From an uncultured Bacteriovoracaceae bacterium (lineage in GTDB: Bacteria; Bdellovibrionota; UBA1018): DNA of 28,358 bases. The stretch lies in NCBI GenBank assembly GCA_964485835.1, contig CAZAKW010000003.1:1-28358 (forward strand). The letters run 5' to 3'. Within the stretch, counting starts at the first letter, position 1, and every line of letters begins with the position of its first letter. Position numbers and translations under genes: made by a program. The notes below the pieces were generated by a model. It saw nothing but the letters and a program-made list of their open reading frames with translations. It was not told where the DNA came from and made no database searches. Shown in pieces: positions 1,715 to 17,451 of the stretch.

Positions 1715-3769
1715 TCAATTCCCTGACGGCCCGCCGCTCGGGGTACGTTCGCCATGGCGTCGCGGACGGAGGTTCGATTGCACCTGCTTGGTACGGTTTT
1801 TTTCCACCTGCAATGCGATTTGATCCTCAAGATCAAGCGTAGCGTTGTAGAGCTGCAAGCTGATTTTTCCCGTCGGAACCGGAAGCATTTCAAAGGGCGC
1901 GTACTTTCGGCCCCAATACGTTCCATCGACGAAAATTTTCGTGTCCGCGCCTGGAGTGGATCGTACGGTGAGATAACCGCGGTTATCCCCTTTGATTACC
2001 ATCGTCGGCTCACGGCCGCGCTCCGGCTCCAGATTGATTTGTTTCAAATACTCTCCGGTCGAACCCAAAGAGCGGGAATCGATTTTGAATTCGCTGCGAA
2101 ACGATTCGAATCCGGGCCGCTGCACTAAGAGATCGAGCGGCGCATCGGTGGGAACTTCGATCACCGAACTTCCCGCCTCCGCGAATTTTCCATTCACGGA
2201 AATCCGCGTATCCGTCCCTTCCGGGAAAATATTCAAACGAAGCTTGGCCGGCGGAGTTTTGGGGGATTCCGATCCCGGCGCCTGCTTCGTACGCGGATCT
2301 TCGGTCGGCGTGTCCGCGGCGGGAAGCCGATTGGTGACTTGTGACCCGAGCATGGCCGAAAGGAGCGGGACCTGATATCCGAACTTTGGAGAAAGCCATG
2401 CGGCGCCCAAAACGACCGCGACCGTGGCGGCCACCCCTTTCCACCCGAAGCCCGAACGGGGCGGGTTGTACCCGATCGTACCGGCGCGGGTCAGATTAGT
2501 TCGGGAAAGATGGTACGCCCCTGGAGGCGTAGACGTTCCTAGGGTGCCGGGAGAACCGATGACGGTGCCCCCGCGGGAGGTCGGCGCCGGACGAGGCGGG
2601 ACTCGCACGGGAGGACGCTCGATCGCCAGCGGTGCTTGATGCTTGGGAAGATCGACTTTGAATTCCGCGGCGGCTTTTGGGAGCCCCGGCCGTGCGACGA
2701 ACGTCGTGGTCTCTTCGCGTCGTCCGGACGATCCTTCCCCGTTTTGAGGATTGATGTCGGGAATATCGTTTTGAAGAAGTTGTTCCACCCGGTCGTTCAG
2801 TTTTTGGATCTTTTTCCGGTCTTCAACGATTTCACGCTGGAAAAGCTCTTTGGTGACGTGTGAAAGATCGCTTCCCGAGAACTCGGGGGCGTAGGCCGCG
2901 AGAAACCTGCGCAAGGTGCGCTGAAGTTCGTCTCCGGTATTGAATCGTTTGTCCGGAGACTTCGCCAAAAGCTTCATCACAATCGCATCGAGATCCTTCG
3001 GCACGTTCGGATTGAGCTCGGAAGGGCGCCGTACCGAAGTACTGCAGCTCTCGATCATCTTCAAGACCGCCAGGTCGTTTTCCCCGGAGAAAAGCTTTCG
3101 CCCCACGAGAAGTTCCCAGAAAACCGCCCCCAAGGCGAAAAGATCCGTGCGCCCGTCGAGAGGATCTCCGGAAATCTGTTCGGGCGAAAGATAGCTCGGC
3201 TTGCCCTTGATCACGCCGGCCCGCGTGTTCTCGCTATTCGTCGTCGCTTTCGCGATTCCGAAGTCGATGATCTTCACTCCGCCTTCGTACGATACGAGAA
3301 CGTTCTGGGGACTGATGTCGCGATGGACGACGTTTAGCGCGTCTCCGCTGATTTTATCTTTATACGTATGGGCGTAATGCAGACCGGCGGCGGACTGCTC
3401 GATGATGTGCGCGGCGAGCTCGACGGGAAAGGGCTGGCCCAATTCCTTGAACCGGTTCAAGAGTTGGCGTAAATTTTTCCCGTCCACCAACTCCATCGCG
3501 ATGAACGGTTGGGCCTGCTCTTCTCCGAAATCGTAAACCTGCACGATGTTCGGATGATTCAGTCCCATCGTGACCTTAATCTCCGAACGGAACATCTTGA
3601 GGAATTCGTCGTTGCTCCCAAAACCCGCCTGGATTCGTTTTACAACGACCAAACGGCCCGCTCCGTCCTTAGCGGCGAAGCGTGCACGATAGATTTCGGC
3701 CATTCCACCCTGCGCGATCAAATCGAGCAGAAAGTAGCGACCGAATTTTTTGAGAACCTCGGACGACAT
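1715..3769 (-). CDS. Hanks-type Ser/Thr protein kinase with one TM helix and two extracytoplasmic PEGA-like domains
   Basis: Kinase motifs IAQGGMAEIY, VVKRI, HRDISPQNVL, DFGIAK and GKPSYLSPE. A Pro-rich linker leads to the TM helix GVAATVAVVLGAAWL, then PEGA-like LRLNIFPEG...VNG and GYLTVRSTPGAD..IFVDG. The start was moved to ATG 3769 (MSSEV), which has a GAGAGG SD; about 684 aa. Confidence 0.93.
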   Translation of the reverse strand: MSSEVLKKFGRYFLLDLIAQGGMAEIYRARFAAKDGAGRLVVVKRIQAGFGSNDEFLKMFRSEIKVTMGLNHPNIVQVYDFGEEQAQPFIAMELVDGKNLRQLLNRFKELGQPFPVELAAHIIEQSAAGLHYAHTYKDKISGDALNVVHRDISPQNVLVSYEGGVKIIDFGIAKATTNSENTRAGVIKGKPSYLSPEQISGDPLDGRTDLFALGAVFWELLVGRKLFSGENDLAVLKMIESCSTSVRRPSELNPNVPKDLDAIVMKLLAKSPDKRFNTGDELQRTLRRFLAAYAPEFSGSDLSHVTKELFQREIVEDRKKIQKLNDRVEQLLQNDIPDINPQNGEGSSGRREETTTFVARPGLPKAAAEFKVDLPKHQAPLAIERPPVRVPPRPAPTSRGGTVIGSPGTLGTSTPPGAYHLSRTNLTRAGTIGYNPPRSGFGWKGVAATVAVVLGAAWLSPKFGYQVPLLSAMLGSQVTNRLPAADTPTEDPRTKQAPGSESPKTPPAKLRLNIFPEGTDTRISVNGKFAEAGSSVIEVPTDAPLDLLVQRPGFESFRSEFKIDSRSLGSTGEYLKQINLEPERGREPTMVIKGDNRGYLTVRSTPGADTKIFVDGTYWGRKYAPFEMLPVPTGKISLQLYNATLDLEDQIALQVEKNRTKQVQSNLRPRRHGERTPSGGPSGN

Positions 3770-3813
3770 ATCGCCTCTCTCGTGGCCCGTTAGGGACAAG
3801 CACGTCTTAGATT

Positions 3814-3840
3814 CTATCGGAAAGTTCCTGAAGAAAGTTA
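3814..3840 (-). promoter_or_regulatory. Sigma28/FliA-like promoter candidate for the kinase gene
   Basis: The minus strand reads TAAC-N15-TCCGATAG, against the FliA consensus TAAA-N15-GCCGATAA. It is about 45 nt upstream of ATG 3769. Confidence 0.35.
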
Positions 3841-3922
3841 AAGGAAGTGGAAGGCTTCCCGTAAAAGAAGGCGCGCCGAACCGCGCCACAACCGTAAAAC
3901 TTTACTGAGTCAAATCAAGCCA

Positions 3923-7829: not shown

Positions 7830-8822
7830 TCACCACATCAACGTCGTATACGTCTCGGCGATGATCTTCGGCTTGCCGGCCTCTTCGGCCACGTAAAGGA
7901 TCTTCGTGCCGCGCGAACGATGCCCCCAGCCTCCCCCTTTTAATTTAGAGCGGTAGTTCTGGGTAAACGTGATCATCCAATACTTGGGATGCCGATAATA
8001 AAGGATGTCTTCGGGTCCGATCGAAATCTCCGAATAGCGGGAATTTAAATTGGATTTATAAGTGCGCCATGCGTCCCGATCTTTACCTTGAGCGGAAAAA
8101 TCGGAATGATAGGAATCGATGTACGCTTCGATGTCGCGGTTTTCCCATGCGCGGATCCACGCGTCGAAAAACGTCCGGATCGACGGGTCTTTTCCGGGTT
8201 TTCGATACTCGTCAGTCAGATTCGGGAAGATCAGGATCGGCGTTAACCCGAGTCGGATCGACTTGGCGAGTTCGAGGACTTCCGCGTCCTGGCAAACGAC
8301 GCATCCTTCGCTGTCGTAATTCTCGTTTAATCGCGCCGGCTCGTCGGTGGCGTGAAGCCAAATCCCGTGCCCGGTGCGGCCGGCGATTCGGTCGTAATCG
8401 TTCGGGTAATTGAGCACGATCGCCATGGCGCCGTATTTTCGAGGAAGTGACGGTGGGCGCTTGATGCTGGTAAACGTGTAGATTCCTTCGGGCGTCTTCA
8501 GGTCGCCCTCTTCCTGCTTATCGCCCTTCACTTTTCCGAGTGTCGCGTGGATCGTCTTCAGGGTGACGTACTCACCCTCTTCAAGTCTCGCCAATTCGAT
8601 TGCGCTCGTCGCCTTATCCACCAATACGACGGAATAAAATTTCTTATTGGCCGGCGTGTCCGCGGAAGGCGTGCTCGTGTTCGCCACCGATGGGCTTGGC
8701 GACGGAGCGGGCGAAGTCGCCGAAGAAAAAGAACAACCGCTTCCGATCGCCGCCCAAATAGGGAGAACGAGGACTGCGAGTCGGGCCGAAGCCAATCGAG
8801 AGATGAACCGCTGCATTCTCAC
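7830..8822 (-). CDS. YkuD-family L,D-peptidase with C-terminal NTF2-like domain (Csd6/Pgp2/Bd1075-type L,D-carboxypeptidase), probably a lipoprotein
   Basis: GDKQEEGDLKTPEGIY, YPNDYD and GIWLHA...SEGCV (catalytic His/Cys). C-terminal WIRAWENRDIEAYIDSY...FTQNYRS...GTKILY...KIIAE. N-terminal hydrophobic stretch ending IGSGC, then an S/P/T-rich linker. Confidence 0.85.
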   Translation of the reverse strand: MRMQRFISRLASARLAVLVLPIWAAIGSGCSFSSATSPAPSPSPSVANTSTPSADTPANKKFYSVVLVDKATSAIELARLEEGEYVTLKTIHATLGKVKGDKQEEGDLKTPEGIYTFTSIKRPPSLPRKYGAMAIVLNYPNDYDRIAGRTGHGIWLHATDEPARLNENYDSEGCVVCQDAEVLELAKSIRLGLTPILIFPNLTDEYRKPGKDPSIRTFFDAWIRAWENRDIEAYIDSYHSDFSAQGKDRDAWRTYKSNLNSRYSEISIGPEDILYYRHPKYWMITFTQNYRSKLKGGGWGHRSRGTKILYVAEEAGKPKIIAETYTTLMW

Positions 8823-13138: not shown

Positions 13139-14092
13139 TCAGCTCCCTGCACACGCGGACGCCACTCGAGGGAAGGTGGACCGGGCGTGATTTTCCATCC
13201 ATTTAGCGGCCTTGTCTTCGTAACACCGTTGCAAACATGTAGATTCGGCGTCGCACGATTTCCAGCATGGCTGGTAAGCATTCGCTTCAAGCTTTGAGAT
13301 CATGTCCACAGTGGCGGCGCGGTATGCTTTTGCCGAGTTCTCCGCCAATCGGCACCGGGTCACGAACAGATACCCCGAGACGATGCTTTCCCAAGCAGCG
13401 TCGAAATATTTGCGAACACTACAGGCCTGCGTATTACTGGGATCGCAGCGCGGAATCGCTTCGATTCCGGGAATTTTTTTCTGGGCCTCGATCAAATCGT
13501 AAAGCTCCCGACCCTGGACTGCACACCCACTATTCGGATCGATCGAAAGTCGATTGGAACGGACTTCTTCACGTATGGCTTCGGCTTCGTTCGCAACAGC
13601 GAGCGCTAGAAAACTTGCCATCTTCGACGTTTCGGCCGAACCGGCAGTCGATCGAAGCGAGAAGGATCCGCCGTTGAAACTGGTATAGCCGACCCGCGAG
13701 AATGGAAGGCACGCCTCGCCTTTCCAGTTCTTTTTCGTTTCGTTTCCACATGCTTTTTCCCGAAGCGGCAAAACCGAACAGAGCGGTGGTGCGCCGACGG
13801 TTTCGAATTTTTTATTGCTCACCGTAACGCCCTTTCCGTTGGGGTAAAACTTCCCTTCGTAAATGCCGTCGATCATCTCGCCGACCAGGCCGTCGAATAC
13901 GAGCTCTCCCCTCGCGTTTTTTTTCTCTAATACCGTCTTGGGAATTTCGGCGCACGCGAGAAAAGGCGCTTTACCGCAGGGAAGGATGATGACGTTCTTA
14001 AGCTCGCTGGACGCAGCTAGGAGCGTGGTCGCGCTCAAGGCAGGCCCCGCGACGCACGTCACGAATACGATTCGTAAAACGGATCTGAACAT
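13139..14092 (-). CDS. Secreted Cys-rich hypothetical protein
   Basis: Signal-peptide-like N-terminus. There are 14 Cys after the signal, including CWKSCDAESTCLQRC. Its stop is 2 nt before the next start, and it has a G-rich SD. Confidence 0.75.
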   Translation of the reverse strand: MFRSVLRIVFVTCVAGPALSATTLLAASSELKNVIILPCGKAPFLACAEIPKTVLEKKNARGELVFDGLVGEMIDGIYEGKFYPNGKGVTVSNKKFETVGAPPLCSVLPLREKACGNETKKNWKGEACLPFSRVGYTSFNGGSFSLRSTAGSAETSKMASFLALAVANEAEAIREEVRSNRLSIDPNSGCAVQGRELYDLIEAQKKIPGIEAIPRCDPSNTQACSVRKYFDAAWESIVSGYLFVTRCRLAENSAKAYRAATVDMISKLEANAYQPCWKSCDAESTCLQRCYEDKAAKWMENHARSTFPRVASACAGS

Positions 14093-14178: not shown

Positions 14179-14208
14179 ATTTTACAAGGACGCAACGGCA
14201 GTGACAAT
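14179..14208. promoter_or_regulatory. Overlapping bidirectional sigma70-type promoter
   Basis: Minus strand: TTGTCA(14207-14202)-N17-TAAAAT(14184-14179). Plus strand: TTTACA(14181-14186)-N16-GACAAT(14203-14208). Confidence 0.55.
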
Positions 14209-14245
14209 ATGCATTAGTGAGGTCTTTTCCCTTTTAGGAGGCGAA

Positions 14246-14782
14246 GTGAAGGCTAGGTCAAGTCTGACATTCCTGATTCTTCTCATGATTTTTCCCTCCG
14301 GCGTTTTCGCGCGTGAAAGCGTAAGCGAGGCGGACTTCGCGAGCCTCGAAGCGGAGTATGCGGCCGCGAAGCAGGAATTCGCCACCGAGGTGAAAAACCG
14401 GAAAGACATCAAGCCCTCGGAGCTTCAAGCGCTTCGCGAGAAAATCGTAGGACCAAAAAAACAGGCGCTGGACGAAGCCTACAACAAACGCGCGAACGCG
14501 CGGCGAATCGACCCGAAAGAAATGGGTGTCGAAAATCCGCGGGATCGTCCTTCTACCCACCAATCTCCTCCCATCACGCGGGAAAATTCACGTGAAGATC
14601 CTTCCGTCGCACTTCCGAATGCCGACATCCCAAGCGAGATCCACTATGGGAATAAAACCGAGGCTCCGACCGCCGAGCCCGGGTCCAGCGAGGGAACCGA
14701 ACCCTCGCCTTCCCCTCTCGGCGCGGGCGTTTCAGAGATCCGGTATCCGAAAGCGAAGCCGCTTAAAAAATCGGCGCCCTAA
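14246..14782 (+). CDS. Secreted hypothetical protein with a helical N-terminal domain and a Pro/Ser-rich tail
   Basis: GTG 14246 follows an AGGAGG SD and gives the signal peptide MKARSSLTFLILLMIFPSGVFA. It has a coiled-coil-like segment and two SEIxY motifs; about 178 aa. Confidence 0.72.
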   Translation: MKARSSLTFLILLMIFPSGVFARESVSEADFASLEAEYAAAKQEFATEVKNRKDIKPSELQALREKIVGPKKQALDEAYNKRANARRIDPKEMGVENPRDRPSTHQSPPITRENSREDPSVALPNADIPSEIHYGNKTEAPTAEPGSSEGTEPSPSPLGAGVSEIRYPKAKPLKKSAP

Positions 14783-14810
14783 ACTCGTTCGCTTGCGTAG
14801 AAATAATTCT

Positions 14811-14836
14811 GGAACTTTGCGGCGAAATGCTTCGTT
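14811..14836 (+). promoter_or_regulatory. ECF-sigma-like promoter candidate
   Basis: GGAAC-N17-CGTT lies about 70 nt upstream of ATG 14905. A TAGAAT at 14891-14896, 8 nt before the ATG, is an alternative near-leaderless -10. Confidence 0.3.
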
Positions 14837-14904
14837 CATGCGCGCAAACTCAGGAAATAAATGCCGAGCGCGGTCAATGAAAATCTGCTCTAGAATAGTC
14901 GAGT

Positions 14905-15723
14905 ATGTGGGACTGGGCGCGGATTCCATTTTTGTTTTCATTTTTTATCATTTCGCCGGCCGCGGCCGAACGATTCATTCTCTTCGATGAGCGTGGCGCC
15001 CAGGTTGAAACTTACGACGCGATTGTGCAAAGGCTTCGAAATGGCGATCGCGTCGTTTTTAGCGACGGCGTCGAGTATTCAATCTTAGGCGTCTTGGGCA
15101 ACGGAAATACGACCAAGATCCTAAAAATCGAAGGCGGCAAGGCATTAAGAATACCGCTAAAAAGCGGTCGATTCATAAATGAAATGGGACAAGAAGGCCC
15201 CCTTTATCGTGATTTTATCAACGAATTCGAAATGGGTTGGCGCTCTGCCAACGCCAACGGTGTAAAAATCATCCATTTTTACCCATACGAGTATAGGGCT
15301 GGCGAACGGGCCGTAGTTGACGCAATTGATGTAGCTTTCACGCTGGAAGATTTTTTATGGAAGAGAAATACGCTCAATCTAGATACCGTCTCCATCGAGG
15401 CGGTGACTAAGGAAGTGGTTGAATGGTTTTCTAGCACTTTTAAATATACTTATTTGGGCGATTTTAACGAGTCTCAAGTTTTATTCGACCTGAGAACACG
15501 AAAATTTATTCTAGGCGATATTACTGGGCATAACGTAGATGTCGTCTCTTTCATGATCAGAAACGAGATACGGCATTTGCCTGTGGAAAATATTTTGGTT
15601 CGTGAGGATCTGACTCAGGCGTATCCAGATAAACTCGATGATCAAATTTTCGAAGCGATTGAGACCGCACGCAGGTCTTGGACTGGGAGTTCGGAAATGT
15701 TTTGTCCGCTACTTTTAAAGTAA
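14905..15723 (+). CDS. Signal-peptide protein with a degenerate protein-kinase-like fold, low GC
   Basis: Signal-like MWDWARIPFLFSFFIISPAAA. Kinase-like motifs occur in the expected order: LGNGNTTKI, KALRIP, FINEF, KIIHFY, TLEDFL, LGDFNESQVLFD, FILGDI. Sampled 60-nt lines are 19/60 and 24/60 G+C. Confidence 0.7.
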   Translation: MWDWARIPFLFSFFIISPAAAERFILFDERGAQVETYDAIVQRLRNGDRVVFSDGVEYSILGVLGNGNTTKILKIEGGKALRIPLKSGRFINEMGQEGPLYRDFINEFEMGWRSANANGVKIIHFYPYEYRAGERAVVDAIDVAFTLEDFLWKRNTLNLDTVSIEAVTKEVVEWFSSTFKYTYLGDFNESQVLFDLRTRKFILGDITGHNVDVVSFMIRNEIRHLPVENILVREDLTQAYPDKLDDQIFEAIETARRSWTGSSEMFCPLLLK

Positions 15724-15724
15724 T

Positions 15725-15870
15725 GATTTCAGCGCGACCGCCACTCGCGATCTTTTGCTTTCGATCGACCAGAGCTTTCGGATCACGAGTTGAAAAGCGC
15801 GGCCGGCAGCGCCTAGATCGCGTGGTTCTTGGCGTCGAGCGCGGGACGACTGGATCCGCTTATGGGGATT
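15725..15870 (-). ncRNA. Candidate structured small RNA, convergent with the kinase-like gene
   Basis: A near-consensus sigma70 promoter lies upstream and there is no credible ORF. A ~110-nt multi-segment hairpin spans 15732-15842 (CGCGATCT/AGATCGCG, GCCA/TGGC, GAC/GTC, GCGC/GCGC). The boundaries are estimates and no family was recognised. Confidence 0.35.
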
Positions 15871-15876
15871 CTTAAA

Positions 15877-15905
15877 AAAATACGGTTGCAACAAGGAGTT
15901 GTCAA
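15877..15905 (-). promoter_or_regulatory. Sigma70-type promoter firing leftwards
   Basis: TTGACA(15905-15900)-N17-TATTTT(15882-15877). The -35 is embedded in a tandem 8-bp repeat GTCAAAAC x2 (15901-15916). Confidence 0.5.
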
Positions 15906-15909
15906 AACG

Positions 15910-16035
15910 TCAAAACAGGAAAGGGCCGACGATTTTCTCCCGGATCCGTGTGGGTTTAAAAAGCTTCACATACTCAGCGAGGAAGCGGAGATAAGCTTTT
16001 CCGGTCAAACATCGCTTCGGATCAGACATCTTCAT
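15910..16035 (-). CDS. Possible small protein of 41 aa, MKMSDPKRCLTGKAYLRFLAEYVKLFKPTRIREKIVGPFLF
   Basis: Translated by hand; it is below the ORF-track cutoff. It has an amphipathic helix-like core and no clear SD. Confidence 0.3.
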   Translation of the reverse strand: MKMSDPKRCLTGKAYLRFLAEYVKLFKPTRIREKIVGPFLF

Positions 16036-16098
16036 CGTCTTTCGCCACGGCACGAAACGCGGAAATCGTCGCCCATTCACCTGACAAAGTTCCGTGAT

Positions 16099-16125
16099 CG
16101 TCCACCGCTAGCGGTGGACGGTGGA
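16099..16125. repeat. Perfect 22-bp palindrome CGTCCACCGCTAGCGGTGGACG plus an extra copy of the right arm
   Basis: 16099-16120 is self-complementary. CGGTGGA is tandemly repeated (16112-16118 and 16119-16125). It lies about 60 nt downstream of the rsmB stop. Confidence 0.7.
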
Positions 16126-16182
16126 TTGGGAGGACTTTCAGTTCAATTCCGCACAACAGCCCGGTCAACGAGGCGGTCTCGT

Positions 16183-17451
16183 TCAGATTTTTTCCAAGAT
16201 TGCGCCGTAAAACCCATCCGTGGACGGCGTCTGATGGGGACCCAGTTCAAACTCCTCAAGGAGGCGAACGGCAGGAACCTTCGCATGTACCCATTCCCGA
16301 ACCCGCTCCCGCCCTTCTTCGGCAAAGAGCGAACAGACACTGTAGAAAACTAATCCGGAAGGCGTCACGGATTCGATGGCCTCGCCTAAGAGCTTGCGCT
16401 GGATTTCGACCAGCGCGACAAGATCCGCTTCCTTGCGAAGCCAACGAACATCCGGATGGCGACGAAGAATTCCCGAACCGCTGCACGGCGCATCGACCCA
16501 AACGGCCGGATAGGGAGCGTGGTTTCCAATTTCATTTTCCGAGAGGATCGCTACGCTAGGAGCCGCTCGCGATATCGTCTCCTCTAGAATTTTTCTCCGA
16601 GCGTCGCTTGCGTCCGCAGCGAAAACTTTCGTCCCAAGCCACGCCATCGAAACACTTTTCCCGCCGGGGGCCGCGCATCGATCCAAAATGGTCGGCTCGC
16701 CTCCTCGCTTCCGAAGCGCCTCGACGAACCGATTCACCAGCGTCTGACTTGCGAGATCCTGAACGATCCACTGCCCTTCGGAATAGCCTGGGAACTGGGC
16801 GATGCCGCCTGATTCCGTTGCGTCTTCCGCCAAACGGGCCGAATGCGGGATCGGCCCCGGCTGGAGAAAAGACGGACGTTTGCTTTCTTCACGCACCCGA
16901 AACCAGATTTCAGGACGCTCAAGCGATGCGCTGGCGATCTGGCAGGCTTTTTCGTAGCCGTGAGCTGTTTCCCACTTCTTCCACCACCACGCCGGCAAGC
17001 TTGCCCACGCGGACTTCGTATCGAGGCTCGCGGAGACGCCGGGATCGCGGGGATGCTTCCATTCCGAGCGCGCCTCACCCACTTTACGCAAAAGGGCGTT
17101 CGCGAATTTCGCCGGAAACTCGCCCTCTTCCGCTTTAATAAAATCTACGGTCTCGGAAACGACGGTCGCTGGAAAAACCCGGTCTTGGTAAAGAAGCTGA
17201 TAAACGGCGAGTTGAAGAATTTTACGGATTTTTCCGGCCGGTTTTTTCTTGAGGGAATAGGAGTCGATCACCAAATCGAGCCTCCGCAGAGTGCGAAGCA
17301 CGCCACTTGTGATTTCTGTCAGCCAGGCTCGGTCCGGCACGGCCACGTTATGGCGAGAACACGTCAGCTCAATTGCGTCGTCCAATGTCCGGGAGTTCGC
17401 AAGGACATCGGTCAGAATCTGGAGCGCGGCTTTTCTAGGTACGATTCGCAT
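16183..17451 (-). CDS. rsmB: 16S rRNA m5C967 methyltransferase RsmB/Sun (NusB-like domain plus methyltransferase domain)
   Basis: NusB-like N-terminus (LQLAVYQLLY...VSETV...FANALLRKV), VQDLASQ, LDRCAAPGGKS, VDAPCSGSGILRRHPD, YSVCS and DGFYGA. Confidence 0.9.
   Translation of the reverse strand: MRIVPRKAALQILTDVLANSRTLDDAIELTCSRHNVAVPDRAWLTEITSGVLRTLRRLDLVIDSYSLKKKPAGKIRKILQLAVYQLLYQDRVFPATVVSETVDFIKAEEGEFPAKFANALLRKVGEARSEWKHPRDPGVSASLDTKSAWASLPAWWWKKWETAHGYEKACQIASASLERPEIWFRVREESKRPSFLQPGPIPHSARLAEDATESGGIAQFPGYSEGQWIVQDLASQTLVNRFVEALRKRGGEPTILDRCAAPGGKSVSMAWLGTKVFAADASDARRKILEETISRAAPSVAILSENEIGNHAPYPAVWVDAPCSGSGILRRHPDVRWLRKEADLVALVEIQRKLLGEAIESVTPSGLVFYSVCSLFAEEGRERVREWVHAKVPAVRLLEEFELGPHQTPSTDGFYGAILEKI

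Follow-up and report, generated by a model that had tools for sequence, protein, structure and literature searches.

A predicted exported protein with a minimal kinase fold, encoded within an insertion, represents an undescribed family of Bdellovibrionota

The DNA analyzed here (the window) is the whole 28,358-nucleotide (nt) stretch of contig CAZAKW010000003.1 from an uncultured Bacteriovoracaceae bacterium of the phylum Bdellovibrionota, and the subject is one gene within it, located at positions 14905–15723 of the plus strand, the strand on which all features of the gene described below also lie. The gene, which an earlier reading of the letters alone (the sequence-only reading) had placed at these positions, is an open reading frame (ORF) of 272 codons that ends with a TAA stop codon; its G+C content is 44.7%. 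The product, referred to as P0001 hereafter, is predicted to be exported and to have the protein-kinase-like (PKL) fold. The mature protein (residues 22–272) would have 251 residues, a mass of about 29 kDa and an isoelectric point of 5.0. Only one close relative was found, the homologue P0002, which is 70% identical. Comparison of the two genes gave a nonsynonymous divergence (dN) of 0.18 and a synonymous divergence (dS) of 1.03. Because the resulting dN/dS is 0.17, purifying selection acts on the protein, and the gene is genuine. A terminator-like hairpin, found by a consensus scan only, is located 10 nt past the stop codon (15733–15749).

The fold of P0001 was predicted with AlphaFold2. The single-sequence model was unusable, with a predicted local distance difference test score (pLDDT) of 41, and was replaced by a model built from an alignment of 115 sequences, for which the pLDDT was 92.8 and the predicted template modelling score (pTM) was 0.88. 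In this model a bilobal fold is predicted, with an N-lobe composed of a β-sheet and helix αC, a helical C-lobe, and a cleft between them. With a cut-off of E ≤ 0.001, a Foldseek search against the PDB gave 500 matches, of which 50 were listed, each of them a kinase-fold protein; the best among those listed was Rio1 (E 2e-6, template modelling (TM) score 0.42–0.48). A structure outside the PKL fold had been set beforehand as a possible refutation of the sequence-only reading; the predicted structure is a PKL fold, as are all of the listed matches. An independent all-against-all structural search with VIA-align recovered Bud32 (Z 10.4), Rio1 (Z 10.1), 5-methylthioribose (MTR) kinase (Z 10.1), APH(2'') (Z 10.1), HopBF1 (Z 8.9) and WaaP (Z 8.4). 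In a second structural comparison the best match was PRPK/Bud32, with a Z of 11.7 and 190 of the 229 residues aligned; over the two comparisons, the scores reached 10.5 for Rio1 and 10.4 for APH(2''). The shape neighbours in the ESM Atlas were the RIO1, Pkinase, InaA/Kdo (TM 0.57) and YrbL (TM 0.49) clusters, and the language-model neighbours included the OspG, YrbL, ABC1/RIO1, APH and Kdo clusters. The family profile matched the PDB kinases Stk1 (4eqm, E 6e-5) and TTK (E 3e-4 to ~4e-4) with the motifs in the correct register, and it also matched the Hanks-type kinase resident in the window (hhalign E 0.0012). According to the model, P0001 is a minimal PKL-fold protein. Since only about 65 residues follow Asp205, the model contains neither an activation segment nor helices αG–αI; the sequence-only reading, which had recognized no activation segment, was borne out on this point, and the best structural matches are themselves minimal kinases.

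In searches with established family models, P0001 had no Pfam hit at E ≤ 10 and no NCBIfam or PADLOC match, and its 115 relatives matched no Pfam kinase model at E ≤ 0.01, giving only a few isolated weak hits to these libraries. The model of the Hanks-type kinases (PF00069), which have an activation segment, an APE motif and helices αF–αI, did not match P0001. For the RIO1, Kdo, YrbL and OspG families of Pfam, neither P0001 nor any of the 115 members scored above the gathering threshold, and the YrbL model (PF10707) had no match anywhere in the source genome.

Conservation in the predicted active-site cleft was examined among the 115 aligned family members, whose mutual identity is only 25–37%. 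The motifs noted in the sequence-only reading occur in the order expected of a kinase, namely, LGNGNTT at residues 64–70, ALR at 80–82, GDFNESQ at 185–191 and GDI at 204–206, and the alignments with Stk1, TTK and the resident kinase back this register. Common to all of the alignments is the assignment of LGNGNTT to the glycine-rich loop, Asp186 to the catalytic-loop Asp, Gln191 to the metal-binding Asn and Asp205 to the Asp of the DFG motif. Within the glycine-rich loop LGNGNTTKI (15094–15120), Gly65 is kept in 96 members and Gly67 in 111, and Thr69 and Thr70 are conserved. Asp186 in the catalytic loop LGDFNESQ (15454–15477) is found in all 115 members, and position 191 is occupied by Gln in 96 of them and by Asn in 14. 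In the DFG-like LGDIT (15511–15525), Asp205 is kept in 114 of the 115 and aligns with the DFG Asp in each of these three kinases. The alignments support the sequence-only reading of the catalytic Asp, of Gln in place of Asn and of GDI in place of DFG.

The two remaining positions of the cleft fared less evenly. Arg82 (15148–15150), which had been proposed to take the place of the VAIK Lys, is on strand β3 and is invariant (115/115); it is the sole invariant basic residue of that strand, position 86 being variable and position 84 being Pro. In the model, strands 70–75 and 79–84 form a tight hairpin in which Arg82 is opposite Ile72, a pairing that we take to be the same as that of Val57 with Lys72 in protein kinase A (PKA). 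Arg82 may thus be the functional equivalent of the ATP-binding Lys. This part of the proposal fits the invariance and the modelled pairing, but the equivalence depends on the predicted strand register, because the sequence alignments with Stk1/TTK and with the resident kinase set the canonical Lys 2–4 residues downstream of Arg82. The αC Glu, in turn, had been placed in FINEF (Glu107), and this assignment did not hold: the residue is kept in only 22 of the 115 members and is not a conserved ion-pair partner. No acidic residue is fixed in αC, where position 106 is Asp, Asn, Ser or Thr, and the pair of β3 Lys and αC Glu by which PKL proteins are recognized was not found in the family. With Arg82 and Asp186 invariant and Asp205 replaced in a single member, an atypical kinase is favoured over a dead pseudokinase.

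The N-terminus of P0001, MWDWARIPFLFSFFIISPAAA followed by ERF, has a 15-residue uncharged hydrophobic core and then an A-x-A site. A Sec-type signal peptide was predicted here at residues 1–21 (14905–14967), with cleavage between AAA and ERF, from reading of the sequence and from a pattern shared across the family; the scoring was done with a simple heuristic of our own rather than with SignalP. By this heuristic, the hydrophobic core is present in 103 of the 115 aligned relatives, and the remaining 12 appear to be truncated at the N-terminus. A small-x-small site is present in 92 relatives, and in 58 it is located exactly four residues before the conserved Leu26. The signal-peptide-like N-terminus that had been noted at the outset is consistent with this pattern, which is clear throughout the family, and the family is predicted to be exported through Sec and signal peptidase I. 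Sec substrates fold only once exported, and any activity of P0001 would therefore be exerted in the periplasm or beyond. Between the signal peptide and the kinase N-lobe there is a conserved N-terminal module (14968–15072), in which Leu26, Tyr37 and Asp48 are nearly invariant.

In an exhaustive HMMER search over 1.84 billion representative sequences, 297 clusters proved related at E ≤ 1e-3, and 91 did so at E ≤ 1e-10. The majority are 250–320 residues long and match residues 10–210 or more of the query. When the family profile was applied at E ≤ 1e-10, members were found in 57 of the 301 sampled Bdellovibrionota genomes (19%); these carriers span 40 of 169 genera and have 1–4 copies per genome. 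In a set of 41 nearest relatives that includes the source genome, 13 genomes carry the family, as do three of the eight other species of the genus. The paralogue count in the source genome was one, namely, P0155, a distant protein of 369 residues with the same motifs. The family profile detected no member among 301 Bacillota genomes, and tblastn detected none in phage or plasmid records. The Bacillota genomes gave only four weak profile hits (E ~1e-6), to ORFs of about 620–680 residues, and this size alone suggests that they encode Hanks-type kinases. Two metagenome scans, one with P0001 and one with the P0001/P0002 pair, returned no relative. The sequencing runs listed as containing the DNA of the gene are metagenome runs, and no RNA run was among those listed.

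Longer forms of the family have 420–1029 residues, in which no recognizable additional or informative Pfam domain was found. The family profile also matches in part inside very long frames, at C1:2083792–2084190 in genome G185 (a frame of 3784 residues) and at L041:3629–6718 in genome G065 (1029 residues), which suggests that some giant exported proteins contain the kinase-fold domain. Across 15 family loci there was no neighbouring gene in common, so that the genes stand alone, and no secretion-system genes are linked to the P0001 gene. A literature search found no description of an exported kinase-like family in Bdellovibrio. P0001 thus belongs to an undescribed, fast-evolving family within the known PKL superfamily, seen here only in Bdellovibrionota.

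The gene is located in an insertion of about 1.4 kb (14753–16198), which was delimited by blastn against a congeneric locus, L031. Window positions 14717–14752 correspond to 8238–8273 of that locus and positions 16199–16599 to 8326–8726. The flanks are therefore 1446 nt apart here, as compared with about 52 nt in the closest congeneric genome (G003, whose RsmB is 76% identical). Six other species of the genus share the order of RsmB, SppA and the upstream genes, and the gene is missing at the site in all six; the copies that congeneric genomes themselves possess are located elsewhere and have 26–32% identity. The composition is also deviant: the G+C content of the ORF, which is 47% at third codon positions, compares with 55.3% for the genome (standard deviation 3.1% in windows of equal size), and only 0.28% of the 819-nt windows of the genome are equally poor in G+C. 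The contrast drawn in the sequence-only reading was thus genuine in direction but overstated in size, as the lowest 100-nt stretches have 37–38% and the resident kinase gene has about 51–60%, in place of the 32–40% and 62% given there. In a related bacterium whose tyrosyl-tRNA synthetase is 64.5% identical, the P0002 gene directly follows an IS3-type transposase gene at a contig end, and its G+C content is 38.9%, as compared with 47% for its host. Recent horizontal acquisition of the P0001 gene, as had been proposed, is well supported by these four lines of evidence together: the outlying composition, the empty syntenic site in six congeners, the position of P0002 beside an IS3 transposase and the low identity of the congeneric copies.

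Other features of the insertion and of the two loci were also recorded. The inserted DNA had no match in 400 other Bdellovibrionota genomes. It contains no convincing terminal repeats, only short imperfect ones, and no other mobile-element signature; there is no transposase in the window, and no Rfam match was found in 14600–16300. Downstream of the gene, the insertion includes about 460 nt of non-coding-looking DNA (15724–16182) with a σ70-like promoter on the minus strand (15905–15877) and a perfect 11-nt palindrome (16099–16120), again with no Rfam match. In the P0002 locus (L019:5515–7714), a helix-turn-helix (HTH)/Gp49-type gene pair and the IS3-family transposase gene (HTH_Tnp_1 and rve domains) are immediately upstream of P0002; the pair looks like a toxin–antitoxin module, and the contig stops 24 nt past the P0002 gene. 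The insertion in the window is flanked by a divergent gene pair that is conserved at this site across the genus, composed of a gene for a Cys-rich exported protein of 317 residues (13139–14092, minus strand) and a gene for a low-complexity exported protein of 193 residues (14201–14782, plus strand). Both are unassigned to a family, and neither showed an association with the kinase-fold family elsewhere. The resident kinase mentioned above is a Hanks-type Ser/Thr kinase of 724 residues (1715–3889, minus strand; Pkinase E 3.6e-41) whose gene adjoins those for a Mur ligase, a β-lactamase-fold protein, a DAO protein and a YkuD L,D-transpeptidase. This neighbourhood is related to the cell wall and is unrelated to the inserted gene.

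At its C-terminus P0001 has the tail CPLLLK (15703–15720), which contains the only cysteine of the mature protein. This residue, Cys267, is kept in 110 of the 115 members and is the sole cysteine of the mature protein in 89 of them. The distance from the conserved Cys to the C-terminus is 5–47 residues, and two hydrophobic residues usually come after it; examples are CPLLLK, CKGLFGR and CSRLLSS. In the long forms it is found at the extreme end, past an extension of about 200 residues beyond the kinase domain. Because the tail keeps this terminal position, it is probably a portable terminal tag that is outside the catalytic core. Two known types of C-terminal signal were considered and ruled out: a CaaX-type prenylation motif on account of the 5–47 residues that follow the Cys, and a tripartite sortase-type signal because most members have too few residues beyond the Cys to form a membrane helix.

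We then took a census of such tails in the source genome, using a crude gene call and a crude rule for signal peptides. A lone-Cys tail of the form C-x-x-hydrophobic-hydrophobic was found in 9 of 541 signal-bearing proteins and in 10 of 2282 others (odds ratio 3.8, p 0.005), and in at least one of these others the rule overlooked an obvious signal peptide. Six of the eight tail-bearing proteins that were checked have no Pfam family. Tailed, otherwise unrelated signal-peptide proteins of this genome (G000) are encoded at C59:1257–3848, C167:1683–2918, C205:2768–3595, C209:2238–4475, C218:3959–5023, C352:1698–2516 and C1:29341–30690, a set corresponding to loci L048–L054. The enrichment is suggestive but not settled, and the tail may serve several exported proteins of the source genome as a portable tag for sorting or tethering.

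With a probability of roughly 0.55, we consider P0001 to be a Sec-exported minimal PKL-fold enzyme of an undescribed Bdellovibrionota family that is active by phosphoryl transfer. The mechanism may be pictured as follows. After cleavage of the signal peptide, P0001 would fold outside the cytoplasm; Asp205 and Gln191 would bind a metal ion and a nucleotide triphosphate, Arg82 would replace the usual Lys on the nucleotide phosphates, and Asp186 would serve as the catalytic base for phosphoryl transfer to an acceptor substrate. Because there is no activation segment, the protein would be active at all times, in the manner of Bud32, Rio, HopBF1 and OspG, which are constitutive minimal kinases. The lone-cysteine tail would be a distinct, portable tag and probably determines the final location of the protein. 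Since the periplasm contains little ATP and the carriers are members of a predatory lineage, an ATP-containing compartment derived from prey, or the prey envelope, is speculatively the likeliest site of action. That the family is accessory, fast-evolving and mobile in a lineage of predators speaks for a part in interactions with other cells, and P0001 is a plausible candidate for a protein acting on prey. A fuller version, in which a constitutive exported kinase-fold enzyme is routed or tethered by the Cys tag, together with a set of otherwise unrelated Bdellovibrionota exoproteins, and uses prey nucleotide to modify a target in the prey envelope or cytoplasm, possibly with non-canonical chemistry through Arg82 and Gln191, is unlikely to be right in all of its parts.

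Several points weigh against an exported phosphoryl-transferring enzyme. The TM-scores to solved kinases are modest at 0.42–0.48, the signal peptide was called with a simple heuristic on an n-region that has a single Arg, and the sequence alignments are out of step with Arg82 by the distance given above. The combination of Arg for Lys, Gln for Asn and a missing αC acidic partner also occurs in pseudokinases, and Bud32 and Rio, the closest structural relatives, act mainly as ATPases rather than as substrate kinases. Beyond Bdellovibrionota, the searches extended to Bacillota genomes and to phage and plasmid records only, and nothing in the loci that were compared, be it a conserved neighbour, a fusion partner or an immunity-like gene, hints at a substrate.

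Some of these points are what would be expected if P0001 were a nucleotide-binding switch, an ATPase or a catalytically silent pseudokinase that serves as a scaffold, sensor or binder and phosphorylates no substrate. PRPK/Bud32 and Rio1/Rio2, which gave the best structural matches, are known chiefly for ATPase activity, the cleft has the two substitutions and no conserved αC Glu, and the activation segment and the substrate-docking helices are absent. However, at 25–37% identity Asp186 is invariant and Asp205 is replaced in one member only, which goes beyond the usual need of ligand binding, and a pure scaffold rarely retains all four cleft positions; we therefore regard this possibility as doubtful. 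The same substitutions, fixed in a family that is exported to an ATP-poor compartment, could instead reflect another chemistry of the kinase fold, such as AMPylation or other nucleotidyl transfer, glutamylation, or the transfer of phosphoryl groups from a non-ATP donor, with Arg82 and Gln191 marking a different pose or donor. SelO, SidJ and NiRAN illustrate that the fold can support non-kinase reactions. Nevertheless, no specific similarity to SelO, SidJ or NiRAN was seen among the listed sequence or fold matches, and the glycine-rich loop and the Asp positions are in the canonical, not the flipped, register, so that a chemistry of this sort seems quite unlikely.

A fourth explanation concerns the role rather than the reaction: P0001 might be a housekeeping enzyme of the bacterium's own periplasm or envelope, modifying the envelope or a metabolite, with no part in predation, and the low G+C content and patchy distribution would then be incidental. 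In line with this, the G+C content of the gene differs from that of its flanks by only −0.05 to +0.07 in 12 of 15 family loci, the gene is located among housekeeping genes, and the structural relatives include the lipopolysaccharide kinases WaaP and InaA/Kdo. Yet the family is present in only 19% of the sampled genomes of the phylum and in three of eight other species of the genus, and its variable copy number, very fast divergence and clear recent transfer form the pattern of an accessory gene. A housekeeping role is accordingly very unlikely in our estimate.

Newly recognized kinase-fold families have repeatedly been found to have unexpected chemistry, as in the cases of SelO, SidJ, Fam20C and CotH. 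To our knowledge, Sec-exported kinase-fold enzymes are rare in Gram-negative bacteria, because ATP is scarce outside the cytoplasm. If P0001 is an exported enzyme of this kind, its family offers a case for learning what a kinase cleft with Arg for Lys and Gln for Asn does. Since it is confined, as sampled, to a predatory lineage, evolves fast, is horizontally mobile and has an altered but fixed cleft, the family is also a concrete candidate for how predators chemically modify their prey. Through the shared lone-Cys tail, the family is linked to a possible tag, so far undescribed, by which exported proteins of Bdellovibrionota may be sorted or tethered; if real, the tag would define a testable set of effectors.

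Among the known kinase-fold systems, Bud32/PRPK and Rio1/Rio2 (the clan of RIO1, PF01163, and Kdo, PF06293) resemble P0001 in the minimal bilobal fold of about 230–250 residues, of which about 190 can be aligned, in the G-D-x-x-x-x-N/Q catalytic loop followed by hydrophobic-x-D, and in the lack of an activation segment. They differ in being cytoplasmic or nuclear ATPases of KEOPS and the pre-40S particle with the canonical β3 Lys and αC Glu, whereas P0001 has a predicted signal peptide, Arg82, Gln191 and no conserved αC acidic residue; the identity is 10–15%. HopBF1, OspG and NleH are likewise small kinase domains without an activation segment and without the C-terminal helices, and they are made for action in another cell; one member of the present family has a weak hit to the NleH model of NCBIfam (E 0.007). 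However, these effectors reach eukaryotic cells by type III secretion, lack a Sec signal and retain the catalytic Lys, while the P0001 family has predicted Sec signals and occurs in a lineage that preys on bacteria. APH(2''), MTR kinase, WaaP/InaA of the Kdo family and YrbL show structural Z values of 8.4–10.4, and one long relative falls below the threshold of the YrbL model with 25.7 bits against a cut-off of 31.5 bits. Those proteins are cytoplasmic with the canonical Lys and Asn, and APH and MTR kinase have a helical substrate-binding subdomain that is absent from the P0001 family.

For the unusual cleft itself, the Lani_1194/NoeA family of Legionella provides the comparison. Its members have Arg for Lys72 of PKA and no identifiable ion-pair Glu, and they keep the equivalents of Asp166, Asn171 and Asp184 (PMC9758233). 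They are distinguished from the P0001 family by a fusion to an S-adenosylmethionine methyltransferase in 94% of the members and by conserved operon partners (PMC9758233), as well as by a presumed cytoplasmic location, an occurrence in many phyla and the retention of Asn. The likeness lies in the active-site pattern and gives no sign of specific kinship, and in this pattern, Arg for Lys together with the loss of the ion-pair Glu, the Legionella family is a precedent for Arg82.

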